A stretch of 64,000 nucleotides of DNA from Bdellovibrionales bacterium (GTDB lineage: Bacteria; Bdellovibrionota; Bdellovibrionia; Bdellovibrionales; JAGQZY01): NCBI GenBank assembly GCA_031429075.1, contig JANOYW010000028.1, positions 14,205 through 78,204 of the forward strand, in the 5' to 3' direction. Shown here piece after piece: positions 29,974-36,662 of the stretch; positions within the stretch are counted from its first letter, which is position 1, and every line of letters begins with the position of its first letter. Both the position numbers and the translations under genes were made by a program. The notes under the pieces are model-generated. The model worked only from the letters and a program-made list of their open reading frames with translations, was not told the origin of the DNA and made no database searches.

Positions 29974-31014
29974 CTATTTTCCTATTTCTGGTTTATCAAG
30001 GGTTGGATCTTTCAACTTAAGATCCTCCGCCATTCTCCAAAGGTTTTCTAGATTGTATTCCATGCGGACGTAATCATAAAAAATATGAACAATCAAAGAC
30101 CCAAAATCCACAAGGACCCAGCGCCCCTCATCCATTCCCTCGATGCCCACAGGAGTCAGACCATATTGATTTTTGACTTCTTTGTAGAGCCACTCACCCA
30201 GGGACTGTGTGTGTCGCTTACTTGTTCCTGAAGCGATGATCACATAGTCCGATGGGGCGATCATTTCTTTTAAATGCAGGGCCCGTACATTGATGGCTTT
30301 TCTATCAAAAAGAGTGTTTGCACAAAACTCAGTAAACAAACGGTAATCGCCCACTTTAGGGCCGATAAGAGGATAGAGATTGTGCTCTTTAATATATTCT
30401 TCCACTCGGATATCTAAAAACTTATCAACACTGCGATTGGTTTTTAAAAATTTGCGAATCTCTGTGGCGGCAACGTCGATTCCTTTAACACGCAAAAACT
30501 CAACGGTTCTGCCGGTTGTGAGAGCAATAAAAGAGCGGTCAAGAACGTCAACATAAGGACGAAGCTCAACGGGAAGATCTTCCTTACTAAACGGTAAAAT
30601 GTTTCCCGGGCGGCTCACCACGATAAAGTTGCACATTTCCAGAAGCTTTTCGAACTTGTGCCATTTATGAATTTGATAAAATTCATCTAAACCTACAACA
30701 AGATGAATTTGTTCCGGTGTGTACTCTTCGAGATACTTTTCCACAGTTTGAATCGTGTAACTTTTCCCTTTGCGACGAATTTCTTGATCGTCTACTTCAA
30801 CATTATCAAAGTCTTGCAAACCTGCTCGAACCATCTCCGCGCGCTGTTCGGGCGTTGGACCATCGACAAAATCTTTTAATGGGTTTTGGTGCGCCGGAAT
30901 CACATACACTTTGTCGATTTTTGTTTTTTCGAAAATATTTTGAATACAGTATGTGTGACCCATATGAAAGGGATCAAACGTGCCGCCATAAAGGGCAATT
31001 ATTTCATTACGCAT
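29974..31014 (-). CDS. nadD: Fusion protein: nicotinate-nucleotide adenylyltransferase NadD + ribosomal silencing factor RsfS
   Basis: N-terminal YGGTFDPFHMGH (NadD). The C-terminal ~120 aa carry RsfS motifs DYVIIASGTSKRHTQSL...WVLVDFGSLIVHIF. One uninterrupted ORF of 346 aa. Confidence 0.85.
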   Translation of the reverse strand: MRNEIIALYGGTFDPFHMGHTYCIQNIFEKTKIDKVYVIPAHQNPLKDFVDGPTPEQRAEMVRAGLQDFDNVEVDDQEIRRKGKSYTIQTVEKYLEEYTPEQIHLVVGLDEFYQIHKWHKFEKLLEMCNFIVVSRPGNILPFSKEDLPVELRPYVDVLDRSFIALTTGRTVEFLRVKGIDVAATEIRKFLKTNRSVDKFLDIRVEEYIKEHNLYPLIGPKVGDYRLFTEFCANTLFDRKAINVRALHLKEMIAPSDYVIIASGTSKRHTQSLGEWLYKEVKNQYGLTPVGIEGMDEGRWVLVDFGSLIVHIFYDYVRMEYNLENLWRMAEDLKLKDPTLDKPEIGK

Positions 31015-32053
31015 TGTTTGAGTCCTTTACAAAGACGATCTCTGATAACTTATTTACAAGCTGAGGAAGATTCGTTCTCGTTGCTGCAGAAATCTTAATT
31101 ATTTGTTTTTCGCCTTTTTTTGCAAATTGAGCCTCTAAATATTCAAGACGATCAGGCGTTGTTGAATCTATTTTATTAAACACGACAACTTGCGGACGTG
31201 TTGCAAGAGCACGATAGCCCTCTTGCTCCTGATTCAGGGAGTCGTAGGCCTTGAGTTCCTCGTTGATATCACAAAAATCCTGCCACACATCACGGTCGGA
31301 GAAGTCACTTACATCTAATAGGTGAACAAAACATTTAGTTCTTTCGATATGCTTTAAAAACTTATGTCCCAAACCGTGACCGAGATGGGCCCCTTTAATA
31401 AGGCCTGGAATATCGGCGATGATAAAGTTTTTATCATCAGAAATGGAGACAATAGAAACAACCCCAAGTTGTGGGTTGAGAGTTGTAAACGGATAGTCGG
31501 CTATCACAGGCTTGGCCGCCGTCACCGAAGACACCAATGTTGATTTTCCTGCGTTTGGAAAGCCGATAATTCCCACATCGGCGATGGTTTTAATTTCGAT
31601 CATCACATCGACAAGTTGTGCGGGTTCGCCGGGTTGTGCATAAGTAGGAGCTTGGTTCACGCTGGTTTTAAAAAAGGTATTTCCTTTTCCGCCGCGCCCA
31701 CCAGTTAAAAACTGATAATCCCCCGCTTTTTCGATATCCAGAAGAATTTGTCCTTCGAGATCTTTGACCACGGTTCCAACAGGAACTTCGACGATGAGAT
31801 CTTTACCATCGGGTCCACTCATTTTTTGAAAACCACCGGGATGCCCGTCTTCGGCTTGAAGCTTTCGCTTCCCCGTATACGAGTACAAGCTGCTTACGTT
31901 AAGCGTCGCACGAAAAACAACGTGTCCACCGCGACCACCATCTCCACCGTCGGGTCCACCGCGAGGAACAAGGGCTTCACGGCGAAAACTGACTTTTCCA
32001 GCTCCACCTTTACCTGATTGCAATTGAATTCTAATTTGATCTACGAACTTCAT
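31007..32053 (-). CDS. obg: GTPase Obg/CgtA
   Basis: MKFVDQIRIQLQSGKGGAGKVSFRRE, a Gly-rich Obg fold, G1 GFPNAGKST and G3 DIPGLI. Confidence 0.95.
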   Translation of the reverse strand: MKFVDQIRIQLQSGKGGAGKVSFRREALVPRGGPDGGDGGRGGHVVFRATLNVSSLYSYTGKRKLQAEDGHPGGFQKMSGPDGKDLIVEVPVGTVVKDLEGQILLDIEKAGDYQFLTGGRGGKGNTFFKTSVNQAPTYAQPGEPAQLVDVMIEIKTIADVGIIGFPNAGKSTLVSSVTAAKPVIADYPFTTLNPQLGVVSIVSISDDKNFIIADIPGLIKGAHLGHGLGHKFLKHIERTKCFVHLLDVSDFSDRDVWQDFCDINEELKAYDSLNQEQEGYRALATRPQVVVFNKIDSTTPDRLEYLEAQFAKKGEKQIIKISAATRTNLPQLVNKLSEIVFVKDSNNA

Positions 32054-32080
32054 GGGGACTCGCTACGAGCGATAAGATTG

Positions 32081-32101
32081 TGCGAGAGAGATCCTCTCGC
32101 A
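32081..32101 (-). other. Intercistronic stem-loop between rpmA and obg
   Basis: Perfect 8-bp stem TGCGAGAG/CTCTCGCA with a 5-nt loop and no following T-run. Possibly a processing or attenuation structure. Confidence 0.35.
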
Positions 32102-32116
32102 ACATTCAAACTCAGA

Positions 32117-32383
32117 TTATGCCGATTTAGCTTCGGAATAAACGCTCACTTTAAATTTTTGTTTTGTGATGCGCTCAAACTTAACTTGGCCTAAAATTAC
32201 AGAATAAATCGTATGGTCACGTCCAATGCGAACGTTATTCCCTACGTAAAATTCTGTGCCACGCTGGCGAACTATAATAGTTCCCGGAGTTACAGTTTCG
32301 CCACCAAATCTTTTAACACCTAGTCTCTTACTTTGACTGTCGCGGCCGTTCTTTGTACTACCCGCGGCTTTCTTCGATGCCAT
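32117..32383 (-). CDS. rpmA: 50S ribosomal protein L27
   Basis: [24 protein letters not shown]...IIVRQRGT, the canonical L27 pattern. Confidence 0.97.
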
Positions 32384-32402
32384 ACTTCACCTCTACTATT
32401 GA

Positions 32403-32936
32403 TTATTTAGTTTTCTTTGCGACTTTCTTTTTCGTCGCGCCCGTAGTTTTCTTTTTAGTTGTGGTTTTTTTCGCTTTAGAAGCAGTGGCTTTCTTTTTAG
32501 GAGCCGCAGCTGCTTTTTTAGCTTTTACCGCTTTTTTCTCGCCTGAATTCGCCGCAGCCAATTTAGCTGCTTTTTTTGCTGGGTCTTTTACTGGAGCTGA
32601 CATTTCTGTAACAACTTTTTCACCAGTGGGTCCAACAATCGATTTAACAAACAACTCTGTATACGGTTGTCTGTGGCCCGTAAGACGTCTGTAGCCCTGA
32701 CGACGACGGCGTTTAAAAATAATAATTTTTGGATTTTTGCTTTGCTGAGTAACGACCACAGTAACTTTGGCGTCCTTCACAAGTGGCGAGCCAAATTGAG
32801 TGGTTTCACCAGAAACTATCAGAACTTCGTTCATATCAAATTCATCACCAAGATTTTTTTCGAGCTTCTCGACGCGAACAACGTCTCCCGCTTTGACTTT
32901 ATATTGTTTACCGCCTGTGCGGATGACTGCGTACAT
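32403..32936 (-). CDS. rplU: 50S ribosomal protein L21 with a 77-aa Lys/Ala/Thr-rich C-terminal extension
   Basis: MYAVIRTGGKQYKV...FKRRRRQGYRRLTGHRQPYTEL is the L21 core (~100 aa), followed by ...PAKKAAKLAAANSGEKKAVKAKKAAAAPKKKATASKAKKTTTKKKTTGATKKKVAKKTK. ATG 32936 lies 4 nt after AGGAGG. Confidence 0.9.
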   Translation of the reverse strand: MYAVIRTGGKQYKVKAGDVVRVEKLEKNLGDEFDMNEVLIVSGETTQFGSPLVKDAKVTVVVTQQSKNPKIIIFKRRRRQGYRRLTGHRQPYTELFVKSIVGPTGEKVVTEMSAPVKDPAKKAAKLAAANSGEKKAVKAKKAAAAPKKKATASKAKKTTTKKKTTGATKKKVAKKTK

Positions 32937-32940
32937 AGGA

Positions 32941-32954
32941 CCTCCTGAAGGAGG
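32941..32954 (-). promoter_or_regulatory. Possible SD-sequestering hairpin at the rplU ribosome-binding site
   Basis: The minus-strand RNA reads CCUCC-UUCA-GGAGG, then UCCU, then AUG. The GGAGG arm is the only SD for rplU. Confidence 0.35.
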
Positions 32955-33015
32955 TAAAGAAGTGCCACAGCGCAAAAGTTTTGTCAATAAAACCGCCTAC
33001 TTCAAAGGCAAAAAA

Positions 33016-33043
33016 ATAGGCCTGCTTAACAAGGCAGGCCTAT
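33016..33043 (-). terminator. Rho-independent terminator of the histone-like gene
   Basis: 10-bp stem ATAGGCCTGC/GCAGGCCTAT with an 8-nt loop, followed on the minus strand by TTTTTTT. Confidence 0.75.
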
Positions 33044-33067
33044 TAGTATATCTAAATTTAGAACGGA

Positions 33068-33262
33068 TTACAGATGATCGATAACGATATCTCTCGCCAT
33101 AACCGTTTTGCGTCCATCAGCCTTTGCAGACTCTGAACCTTTTTCACATAATGCTTCTACGGCTTTACTGAGTATGTCGATGGTTTCAGCGGAAGTGTTA
33201 AAGCCATATTTATCTTTAATGTGTTTCTTTACTTTGCTCGTGACGACAAGAACGTCTGCCAT
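33068..33262 (-). CDS. Histone-fold DNA-binding protein (bacterial histone, Bd0055/HBb-like)
   Basis: 64 aa: MADVLVVTSKVKKHIKDKYGFNTSAETIDILSKAVEALCEKGSESAKADGRKTVMARDIVIDHL. The GRKTV..RDI block matches the L2-alpha3 signature of archaeal histones. AGGAGG lies 5 nt before the ATG. The gene has its own terminator. Confidence 0.75.
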   Translation of the reverse strand: MADVLVVTSKVKKHIKDKYGFNTSAETIDILSKAVEALCEKGSESAKADGRKTVMARDIVIDHL

Positions 33263-33444
33263 GAAGACCTCCTAAAGTGCATAAATTGCTTCCTAGAATC
33301 TATATTAGGGGCCCTGAGAGTTCAAAAGAAATAAAAGCGGCGTCTCAGCGTGTTTTTTAGCTCATTTAAAATCGTTTTTTATTAGTAATTTTATATACTT
33401 ATCGAAAGCTTCACGGCGCCTGTCGGGGTTCGCCGCCTTGCGGC

Positions 33445-34905
33445 CTAAATCTCAATAATTTTATCGCCGTCCACTTGCATGAGCTTGGCACTCCGCAAAC
33501 CATCAGCCTGGGGACTAATCCATACAAAGGCCTTTTGCCCCTGAAACTTTGTACATTCCACATCGAGAAAGGCAGGAGACCATGTGCCGGGATTTAAATG
33601 CTCGATGGCCCCAATGATTTCATGGCGCACAATATGGGTGTGTCCATAGATGACTCTTTTTGTGGAGGTGATCATGCCTGAAAGCGATAAAACTTCCTCA
33701 TCGGGCTTCTTATAGAGCGATATATAGGACTGCACGTTGCGGCTGTAGAGGAAATAAGGGGGAAACAGAATTCCCACCGGCACCAGCATCCAATAGAAGG
33801 AGATTTGATAGATCTTATCAATTAATAAGAACGCATAGAGCAAAAGAAAAAAACCAAACAGAAAAATAAATGTTCGATCCAGCCACAGTTCTTTTAAAAT
33901 CTTTAAGGGGCTGTCCGAAATGGGCTGTGCGAAGAGCGGTTGAAGCTCACGCACCATTCGCGGTGTGGCATTGGCTTTTTTGGCAATTTCATCAACACGG
34001 TCTTCGATGGTTAGGGGGTTTTGTAAGGCGCGTAGTGATCGATGACGAAGTGTTTGAATAAAGGTCATAACCGTTGACCAAAACCCCGTCCAGATGAGAA
34101 GGGGTTGGGCGCGCAGCATGTATTTGAAGTAGGCCTTGGTAAAACCCCAAGCCGAAAGCAAATAGTTTGCGTCGACGTGGGGATTAAAGAAACCCATGCC
34201 GTTACTTAAGTAGCGGCACGCTAAATCGCCAAAAGGTAAGCGCACCAGCAGTCGATTGTAGTCCACCACCACCGGATTGATGGGGTCTTGCATGCAGCAG
34301 AAAGGATCGTGCTGGTGTCCGTGTTCAACCAGGGTGTCTTTGTTGCTGATGTAAAACCATTCCACAAAACGCACGTGTCGACGCTGCTCGATGTCTAATT
34401 TTAAAAGTTCGAGGATTTTTTTTTGAACGTCGAGCCAGTTGAGTTCGAGATCATGGTTGCCAATGACAAAAACCACGCGATGACCTTCGCCCACAAACCA
34501 CGTCAGGGCTTCCACCCAAATCGGGTGATCTTTAAGAATCATTTCAATTTTATAAATGGATTTTTCTTTTTCCGTATCCAAACCGCGACGCGACTCCAGC
34601 CAGGAGACATGGTAGCCCGGCTCTTTGGGAAACGATGTCACGCTGTCAAAATCAAAAATATCGCCATTGAGAATAAGCTCGACGGTTTTGCCTTGAGCTT
34701 CGCTATGAATATACTTAAGGAACGAAAAAAACTCCGCATCAAAAAAAAATTCTTTCGACTTAAATTTTTTCCATAGAGGATGTTTATGGTTTAAGGGCTC
34801 CGATTCGCAAAGGTGAAGGTCACTCACCACAGCCGTGTGGCTGGCTGTAGAAAAATCGATCTCCTCATTTGAGAAATCGATGTGAGTAGAAACCGTCTCT
34901 ACCAT
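33445..34905 (-). CDS. Membrane-associated metallophosphoesterase (calcineurin-like)
   Basis: MPE motifs VSDLHL, NGDIFDF, IGNHDLE, EHGHQHD and, after about 190 aa containing three hydrophobic segments, YGHTHIV. Confidence 0.7.
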   Translation of the reverse strand: MVETVSTHIDFSNEEIDFSTASHTAVVSDLHLCESEPLNHKHPLWKKFKSKEFFFDAEFFSFLKYIHSEAQGKTVELILNGDIFDFDSVTSFPKEPGYHVSWLESRRGLDTEKEKSIYKIEMILKDHPIWVEALTWFVGEGHRVVFVIGNHDLELNWLDVQKKILELLKLDIEQRRHVRFVEWFYISNKDTLVEHGHQHDPFCCMQDPINPVVVDYNRLLVRLPFGDLACRYLSNGMGFFNPHVDANYLLSAWGFTKAYFKYMLRAQPLLIWTGFWSTVMTFIQTLRHRSLRALQNPLTIEDRVDEIAKKANATPRMVRELQPLFAQPISDSPLKILKELWLDRTFIFLFGFFLLLYAFLLIDKIYQISFYWMLVPVGILFPPYFLYSRNVQSYISLYKKPDEEVLSLSGMITSTKRVIYGHTHIVRHEIIGAIEHLNPGTWSPAFLDVECTKFQGQKAFVWISPQADGLRSAKLMQVDGDKIIEI

Positions 34906-36050: not shown

Positions 36051-36662
36051 TCATTGATTCTTACAGTTTTTAAGGCTTTGGCCGTTTTGGTAAATGCCCT
36101 TTTCAACCAAGATGTCTTGCGCGAGAGATGAACCTGTTTTGGCCTGTAAGTCCATTAAACGCAAAATATTAGCAGGGTCGGAACCGATGGTTTTTCGACT
36201 CATCACCATAAATACATCCACAAACAAGCTAAATTTTTGCGCGATTTCCATATACATTTTTGCGTACGTATCTTCGTACATTCCGCGTGAAAGCGACGAA
36301 TAGGCTGTGGCACCCATGTCGATATAATAATCCACGTCGACCACTTTGCGCTGGAAGGAGTCGGAAAAAAACCCACTCATGTAAAGCGCACTATCGCCGA
36401 GTTTTTTTAGAAGATCGTAGCGTTGTTTTTGTGGAGCATTGGCGGCTCGTAACATCATCTCTGCAAGGGTATCGCGAGTTCGTTTTCCCGAAGCTTCTTC
36501 CTCGCTATATAAATTTGTCGCTAAAAGATAATGATTTAGTAAATCAACCAGGTAGGCTTCGACATGCGGGTAGGTTTCGATTTTTCTATCAAGTAGTGCC
36601 TCTTTCAGAGACTGCCTGAAAAAGGTTTTTGAGTCTTCGCCAATGGATATAATGGGCTTCAC
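36051..36662 (-). CDS. Hypothetical cytoplasmic protein
   Basis: 203-aa helical protein with no signal peptide and no motif I recognise. Confidence 0.4.
   Translation of the reverse strand: MKPIISIGEDSKTFFRQSLKEALLDRKIETYPHVEAYLVDLLNHYLLATNLYSEEEASGKRTRDTLAEMMLRAANAPQKQRYDLLKKLGDSALYMSGFFSDSFQRKVVDVDYYIDMGATAYSSLSRGMYEDTYAKMYMEIAQKFSLFVDVFMVMSRKTIGSDPANILRLMDLQAKTGSSLAQDILVEKGIYQNGQSLKNCKNQ

Follow-up and report, generated by a model that had tools for sequence, protein, structure and literature searches.

The locus described here raises two questions: whether a short ORF on the minus strand of a 64,000-nucleotide stretch of bacterial DNA (the window) encodes a true bacterial histone and, if so, how such a protein would engage DNA. 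The answer that we favour, with a probability of about 93%, is that the ORF is orthologous to Bd0055/HBb in both position and sequence and that its product would be a dimeric, non-specific nucleoid protein that bends DNA. All of the function proposed in this work is transferred from that orthologue, with which the protein shares 83% identity.

The ORF is a real gene that encodes a histone. The original prediction placed a 64-aa reading frame on the minus strand here, and the translation is exactly as quoted, starting from an ATG at 33262..33260 (Table 1). A database search returned 1064 homologues at E ≤ 1e-3 and, among the matches listed, nearly all are exactly 64 aa long. Furthermore, a scan that used one genome per species found 291 genomic loci with a relative of the gene, the labels of which are essentially all Bdellovibrionales, Pseudobdellovibrionaceae, or Bdellovibrio. 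When the family is clustered at 50%, 499 clusters remain for E ≤ 1e-3 and 53 for E ≤ 1e-10, and doublets as well as forms extended at the N-terminus are among them. An identical protein (100%) is encoded by a Bdellovibrionales MAG (JANPLN010000015.1, hereafter L001), the DNA of which is about 90% identical to the window over 10 kb. The gene is under strong purifying selection: in comparison with 79 orthologous loci, pN has a median of 0.12 and pS one of 0.81, and pN/pS ranges from 0.03 to 0.2 overall and from 0.03 to 0.06 against three near relatives (L002 to L004). We also considered a 55-aa ORF that overlaps the gene on the plus strand (33108..33275) and rejected it as a shadow ORF, because, in the frame of the minus strand, the great majority of substitutions among orthologues are synonymous; the comparison with L002, for instance, yields 30 synonymous and 4 non-synonymous substitutions in that frame. 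A second histone resembling Bd3044 was sought with the family HMM in the six-frame translation of the window, and none was found, the sole match being the ORF already known.

Table 1. Coordinates of the histone gene and of its expression signals in the window
Feature	Position	Strand	Remarks
Histone CDS (64 aa plus stop)	33068..33262	(-)	ATG-started ORF; bacterial dimer-type α3-truncated histone, orthologue of Bd0055/HBb
Shine-Dalgarno sequence AGGAGG	33268..33273	(-)	Read directly; 5-nt spacer TCTTC before the ATG
Intrinsic terminator	33005..33044	(-)	Hairpin 33044..33015, T-run 33014..33005
Candidate sigma-70-type promoter TTGAAC-N17-TAGATT	33297..33325	(-)	Found by eye; putative

The gene had also been credited with strong and independent expression signals, a description that suits its Shine-Dalgarno sequence and its terminator but not its promoter, for which there is only a weaker candidate. 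Direct reading confirms the AGGAGG announced 5 nt ahead of the ATG, and 80 of the 81 upstream regions of orthologues have a similar core (GGAG, GAGG, or longer) at this position. On the downstream side, a terminator scan agreed within one base with the coordinates first proposed (33016-33043). The hairpin consists of 11 pairs, 6 of them G-C, closed by an 8-nt loop and followed by TTTTTGCCTT, and when folded alone it reaches -18.2 kcal/mol; a weaker second hairpin with its own T-run was reported at 33011..32993. Among the orthologous loci, 62 of 81 present a hairpin (≤ -8 kcal/mol) and a T-run at most 110 nt from the stop codon, with sequences that are unrelated to one another. Thus, given the frequency of both signals, signals for stand-alone expression are a trait of the family.

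Upstream, a gap of 182 nt separates the histone from the stop codon of the preceding gene, which encodes a 486-aa calcineurin-like phosphoesterase, and a sigma-70 consensus scan of this gap reported no minus-strand promoter. The candidate in Table 1 (TTGAAC at 33325..33320 and TAGATT at 33302..33297) agrees with the consensus at 8 of 12 positions, which is below the threshold of the scanner and accounts for its absence from the output. Its hexamers are kept in the window and in L001, L003, and L004, those of L002 read TTGAGT/TAAATT, and the intervening spacer varies. From the upstream gap and the terminator, we infer that the gene is monocistronic. An Rfam scan of positions 32000-34000 returned nothing above noise, with one match (E 0.95) inside the phosphoesterase gene, and thus provides no explanation in terms of a leader RNA or an sRNA.

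The surroundings of the gene bear on its orthology. In the direction of the histone strand, the order is a tatA/B-family gene, tatC, the phosphoesterase gene, the histone, rplU (L21), rpmA (L27), obg, an nadD-rsfS fusion, and a SPOUT methyltransferase gene. In 49 of 74 loci, the gene directly 5′ of the histone encodes the phosphoesterase and has the same orientation; among these loci are those of Bdellovibrio HCB isolates and of B. bacteriovorus Bd16 (L044), whose chromosome has the histone gene at about 52 kb. This common neighbour makes the gene of the window a positional orthologue of bd0055. In other loci, tatC is adjacent to the histone, and TatC is encoded upstream in many. The histone gene of the window and bd0055 are alike in being stand-alone, with a Shine-Dalgarno sequence and a terminator of their own, as well as in their upstream neighbour. 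The downstream side is peculiar to the clade of the window, as rplU-rpmA-obg directly follows the histone in just 5 of 77 loci, and this arrangement is absent from the Bdellovibrio isolates sampled. With ori-proximal gene dosage in mind, we also searched the window for a replication origin, but its GC skew is uniformly negative and shows no switch. As a separate observation, the L21 encoded next to the histone carries a conserved C-terminal tail of about 75 residues, rich in Lys, Ala, and Pro and similar in character to histone H1.

At the protein level, Bd0055/HBb of B. bacteriovorus HD100 (UniProt Q6MRM1; PDB 8fvx, 8fw7, 8cmp, 9ezz, and 9f0e) has the same length of 64 aa, and phmmer aligned residues 1-64 of the window histone with residues 1-64 of both Bd0055 (8fvx_A, E 1.1e-27) and HBb (8cmp_A, E 1.3e-27). 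The near-colinearity suggested in the original prediction therefore extends over the full length, with 53 of 64 residues identical and zero gaps; the match to the family profile has an E value of 6e-40. Further phmmer matches in the PDB were HTkC (9f2c), the Leptospira protein HLp (9qt0), HmvA (8bdk), and a histone-fold protein from M. kandleri (1f1e). None of the 11 differences from Bd0055 (positions 3, 14, 17, 19, 20, 21, 30, 35, 37, 40, and 43) affects a column that is invariant (31 columns) or near-invariant (9 columns) in a 39-sequence alignment of the family. Among them are the replacement of G19-Q20-M21 by Y19-G20-F21, flanking loop L1, and the substitutions L40E and V43S, and the window protein has a slightly smaller net charge than Bd0055, with a lower computed pI (7.9 vs 8.9). 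L40E and V43S alter the surface of α2, and a change in dimer-dimer packing could follow.

The fold itself was examined in an AlphaFold2 model built from the same 39-sequence alignment. The model has a mean pLDDT of 82 and comprises, according to DSSP, helices at residues 2-19 and 25-48 and a one-turn helix of three residues at 56-58. When it was compared with the PDB using Foldseek, the top ranks were occupied by 9ezz, 8fvx, 9f0e, and 8cmp (TM 0.75-0.81, rmsd 1.8-2.3 Å), so that the histone fold that had been claimed is upheld, with HBb/Bd0055 as the best matches and a superposition of the model on their structures at a TM of about 0.8 and an rmsd of about 1.9 Å. After these, the matches listed were HLp and HTkC, followed by nucleosomal histones, MHF/CENP, and other histone-fold chains. 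In α3-truncated histones, α3 has 3 to 4 residues and α2 is approximately one turn shorter than in nucleosomal histones (PMC11390915). The protein of the window has this form, with α2 at 25-48, α3 at 56-58, and a chain that ends 6 residues past D58. In the scheme of Schwab et al. (PMC11390915), it is a "bacterial dimer" histone of the α3-truncated family, which is the type reported for the class Bdellovibrionia.

The residues to which function has been assigned in the orthologue can be followed one by one. Hu et al. (PMC11317129) defined the main DNA contacts of HBb by MD as N22, R57, S9, T53, T8, S24, K10, K12, K52, and K16, and all ten are identical in the window histone. The S9-K10 pair, a conserved motif of bacterial histones (PMC10627809), and the lysines of α1 are likewise present. 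In HBb, the RD clamp is formed by R51 and D58 and reinforced by D49 (Hu et al., PMC11317129). These three residues are the same in the window protein; across the family alignment, R51, K52, T53, and D58 never vary and D49 almost never does, which agrees with the RKT loop and the Arg/Asp pair noticed at the outset. As for the dimer core, which in HBb consists of L31, I35, L38, V11, and I59 (Hu et al., PMC11317129), the sole change is the conservative I35V. Finally, for Bd0055 to bring the ends of DNA within FRET distance, the substitutions S45F/A48H/I61L were required (Hocher et al., PMC10627809), and the window histone has S45, A48, and I61, as Bd0055 does. The suggestion that the C-terminal surface needed for tetramers is absent is supported by this agreement with a non-tetramerising protein.

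By analogy with HBb, we propose that the protein would form a head-to-tail homodimer through its antiparallel α2 helices, with a core made of L31, V35, L38, V11, and I59, and that four-helix-bundle tetramers of the archaeal or eukaryotic type would not be possible. Binding to DNA would be independent of sequence and would rely on contacts with the backbone and the minor groove made by the paired L1-L2 loops (N22, S24, K52, T53, and R57) and by the beginning of α1 (T8, S9, K10, K12, and K16). Individual dimers would then bend DNA locally, by about 84 degrees over 36 bp, in a manner similar to HU/IHF, and, when the protein:DNA ratio is very high, dimers may densely coat straight DNA in an end-on fashion. 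The model for this proposal is HBb, a dimer that binds DNA non-specifically throughout the genome and compacts it by bending it about 84 degrees over 36 bp (Hu et al., PMC11317129), and which, according to the literature on α3-truncated histones, "strictly forms dimers". The resemblance to HU/IHF is a functional analogy only, between small, abundant, dimeric, and largely non-specific DNA benders that may stiffen DNA at high density; the folds are unrelated, and no membership in that family is claimed. In the cell, the protein would be a very abundant and probably essential nucleoid-associated protein, given that Bd0055 ranks 12th among 2125 quantified proteins and is the top protein of the nucleoid fraction, and that 133 plus 150 attempts to delete its gene yielded zero deletants. 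A 2025 preprint nevertheless calls the in vivo function of Bd0055 unknown and reports maximal transcription of bd0055 late in the growth phase.

Whether filament or bending is the physiological binding mode of the Bd0055/HBb family is disputed, and the alternative that survives best is an end-on "nucleohistone filament" in which each dimer uses one L1-L2 interface and straight DNA is encased by approximately one dimer per 2.5 bp. Contacts between a basic ridge and an acidic underside, along with the exchange of N-terminal tails, would hold the assembly together. Hocher et al. (PMC10627809) arrived at this arrangement from a crystal structure of Bd0055 with 35 bp of DNA, ladders in EMSA, more than 60 dimers per 147 bp in AUC, and a lack of FRET between the ends of the DNA. 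Since the orthologue is very abundant, such dense coverage would be feasible, and both the N-terminal segment MA(D/E)VLVV and the L1-L2 residues are conserved in the window histone. However, in the same study, deletion of AEVL at the N-terminus left the FRET behaviour unaffected, and Hu et al. (PMC11317129) reached a different conclusion, the bending of DNA by single dimers, from two other co-crystal forms, compaction in TPM, constraint of supercoils, ligase-mediated circularisation, and MD. They argued that the FRET data lend limited support to the filament, which may represent what happens at high density, as with HU. The window protein is, in addition, less basic than Bd0055, and L40E could alter the electrostatic contacts between dimers. 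As the physiological mode of binding for the window histone, we consider the filament possible but doubtful; filament and bending may apply at different concentrations, as is the case for HU.

A more elaborate proposal would assign a role to the peculiarities of this locus. It starts from the relocation of the histone gene, in this clade, to a place directly before rplU-rpmA-obg, where partial read-through of its terminator could tie the dosage of the histone to the making of ribosomes and to the control of growth rate. In addition, the clade-specific surface changes (Y19-G20-F21, L40E, V43S, and the lower pI) could shift the balance between bending and filament, and the tail of L21 could act as an extra polycationic nucleic-acid binder. 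We regard this joint reading as improbable.

Another rival of bending by an HBb-like dimer is the archaeal mode, in which HMf-type proteins build four-helix-bundle tetramers or hypernucleosomes that wrap about 30 bp per dimer. The window histone does resemble HMfA and HMfB (1b67, 1a7w, and 5t5k) in its histone fold, in the GRKT-x4-D motif of L2-α3, in the RD clamp, and in the use of L1-L2 and α1 for DNA contacts. Furthermore, HBb constrains supercoils in vitro, as HMfB does, and a single HMf dimer bends DNA at an angle similar to that of HBb (PMC11317129). Of the line-up with HMfB that was originally proposed for L2-α3, the likeness of the motif stands, but the sequence similarity is non-significant, both for the family profile against HMf structures (E 0.88 for 1a7w and 0.15 for 1b67) and for BLASTP against an HMfB sequence (E 0.11, misaligned). 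The structures also differ: α2 is one turn shorter in the window protein and α3 has a single turn instead of around 10 residues, the chain ending 6 residues past D58, and A48 occupies the place where HMfB has His49 in its tetramer interface. No Arg occurs between residue 1 and R51, and hence the sprocket arginine of L1 (R19 in HMfB) is absent, as has been reported for bacterial singlets (PMC10627809). In that study, a modelled hypernucleosome of Bd0055 fell apart in MD, MNase digestion produced no ladder, and the triple mutant was needed for FRET, S45, A48, and I61 being the non-tetramerising state. Archaeal-style wrapping of DNA by the window histone, a mode that work on Bd0055 has largely disproved, is thus very unlikely.

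The next-best matches in sequence and structure point to another form of wrapping, that of the face-to-face (FtF, DUF1931-type) histones, closed tetramers around which about 60 bp are wrapped. HLp of Leptospira perolatii (9qt0-2; E 5.9e-5 for 9qt0) and HTkC of Thermococcus kodakarensis (9f2c; E 9.4e-6) match with a TM of about 0.67-0.75 and belong to the same α3-truncated superfamily, with a short α2, a one-turn α3, the RD clamp, and non-specific DNA binding in common with the window protein, which also has a weak match to DUF1931 (18.3 bits). That match is nevertheless below its threshold (21.8), HBb is a far stronger match (97 bits vs 26-29, and 83% identity vs 38-42%), and, within Bdellovibrionota, FtF histones have been reported for the class Bacteriovoracia, while bacterial dimers are the type of the class Bdellovibrionia (PMC11390915). 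HLp and HTkC form stable tetramers, whereas the window protein is placed with HBb, a strict dimer. We consider it very unlikely that this gene encodes a face-to-face histone.

The original prediction had also pointed to Pfam PF00808 (CBFD_NFYB_HMF), and this model is indeed the best Pfam match, yet at 20.0 bits (E 8.5e-4) it is below the gathering cut-off of 21.4; the NCBIfam model NF043032 (archaea_histone), likewise a best match, reaches 21.2 bits against a cut-off of 50. The identification is therefore based on the PDB sequence search and on the comparison of structures. The sub-threshold scores account for the label "hypothetical protein" that the named homologues bear at NCBI. The least credible reading, that the locus has no part in chromatin and is a spurious ORF or a histone-fold protein-protein scaffold of the NF-Y/TAF type without a DNA role, could invoke those scores and labels, but it is at odds with more than 1000 homologues of fixed length, a pN/pS far below 1, the conservation of all DNA-contact residues, and an orthologue that is enriched in the nucleoid and binds DNA in crystals and in solution.

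An HBb-like nucleoid protein that is very abundant would be encoded by a highly expressed gene, and silent sites, like the consensus Shine-Dalgarno sequence and the terminator, offer some indirect indication in this respect. Between the window and L001, pS is 0.024 for the histone, a value that rests on 64 codons and small counts, and 0.033 for L27; L21 and obg reach 0.23-0.25, and the five remaining neighbours 0.33-0.49. In the comparison with L003, pS is 0.27 for the histone (again from 64 codons), 0.30 for L27, and 0.39 for L21, and it amounts to 0.67-0.83 in six non-ribosomal neighbours. A constraint on silent sites on a par with that of ribosomal protein L27 would fit strong codon selection in a highly expressed gene.

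The window histone is already known as a kind, being an ordinary member of a structurally solved family. Hocher et al. found homologues of Bd0055, highly conserved in amino-acid sequence, in 67% of Bdellovibrionota genomes, and the statement that bacterial histones are little explored, with which the locus was first introduced, is outdated now that crystal structures with and without DNA, proteomics, attempts at deletion, and surveys of the family have been published. The clade-specific placement before rplU-rpmA-obg, the constraint on silent sites, and the H1-like Lys/Ala tail of L21 are minor features that go beyond the cited literature.

Histones were regarded as restricted to archaea and eukaryotes, a view that the bacterial ones have overturned, and the way in which the histone of Bdellovibrio engages DNA, by bending it or as an end-on filament, is still debated. 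To this discussion, the locus adds a further orthologue of a protein that has been solved both free and bound to DNA, in this case from an uncultured lineage of Bdellovibrionales, and it confirms that the functional residues of the Bd0055-type histone are fixed across the order. It also illustrates that curated HMMs (Pfam and NCBIfam) still miss the Bd0055/HBb family at threshold, so that its genes are routinely labelled "hypothetical", and that a codon-level constraint rivalling that of a ribosomal protein may serve as a proxy for expression that can be used in uncultured genomes.

The histone gene is followed immediately, on the 3′ side of its main terminator, by a second and weaker terminator-like hairpin with its own T-run, which lies ahead of a TTGACA hexamer and the Shine–Dalgarno sequence of rplU (coordinates in the table). 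Two terminators in tandem would keep the histone gene transcriptionally separate from the operon for ribosomal proteins.

Features around the histone gene, in window coordinates
Feature	Position	Strand	Remarks
Apparent nadD-rsfS fusion ORF	29974-31014	-	346 aa; two domains in one ORF
Ribosomal protein L21 (rplU)	32403-32936	-	177 aa; Pfam L21p domain
Second terminator-like hairpin + T-run	32993-33011	-	Weaker than main histone terminator
203-aa ORF	36051-36662	-	Upstream of tat genes

The L21 gene that adjoins the histone gene itself encodes an H1-like tail. The Pfam domain covers just residues 1-100 of the protein, and the C-terminal ~75 residues form a Lys/Ala/Pro/Thr-rich, histone-H1-like extension that includes AKKAAKLAAANSGEKKAVKAKKAAAAPKKKATASKAKK. 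Across the four nearest related loci (L001-L004), the composition of this tail and the total length of the protein (177-182 aa) are kept, while the sequence of the tail drifts.

Another ORF of the neighbourhood joins a CTP_transf_like domain of the nicotinate-nucleotide adenylyltransferase type (residues 8-149) to a ribosomal silencing factor RsfS domain (residues 231-326), and is an apparent nadD-rsfS gene fusion; it is 98% identical in L001, a Bdellovibrionales MAG with the identical histone protein, and 89% in L003. The 203-aa ORF had no Pfam match at E ≤ 1e-3; its amino acid identity is 94% in L001 and 87% in L003, with pN far below pS. It is apparently conserved and has no assigned function.

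Relatives of the histone were also found in other records. For instance, a Bdellovibrio-type histone with 84% identity is encoded at 377-568 of JBLMWG010000244.1, a 3.4-kb contig from a MAG binned as "Bacillota bacterium", and upstream of it lies the phosphoesterase gene that also precedes the window's histone gene; mis-binning seems more likely here than a true Bacillota histone. Many representatives of the homologues clustered at 50% (P0121, P0128, P0130 and P0133, among others) are 120-270 aa long and were matched by the query in two stretches; they are doublet histones or N-terminally extended forms. P0121, for example, has 133 aa and scores E 1e-23.

Within the family, residue Cys39 of the histone at 33068-33262 on the minus strand, in the middle of helix α2, is invariant in all 39 aligned members. 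The HBb structure paper (Hu et al.) uses none of the words "C39", "cysteine" or "disulfide"; a redox or structural role for this residue is possible.
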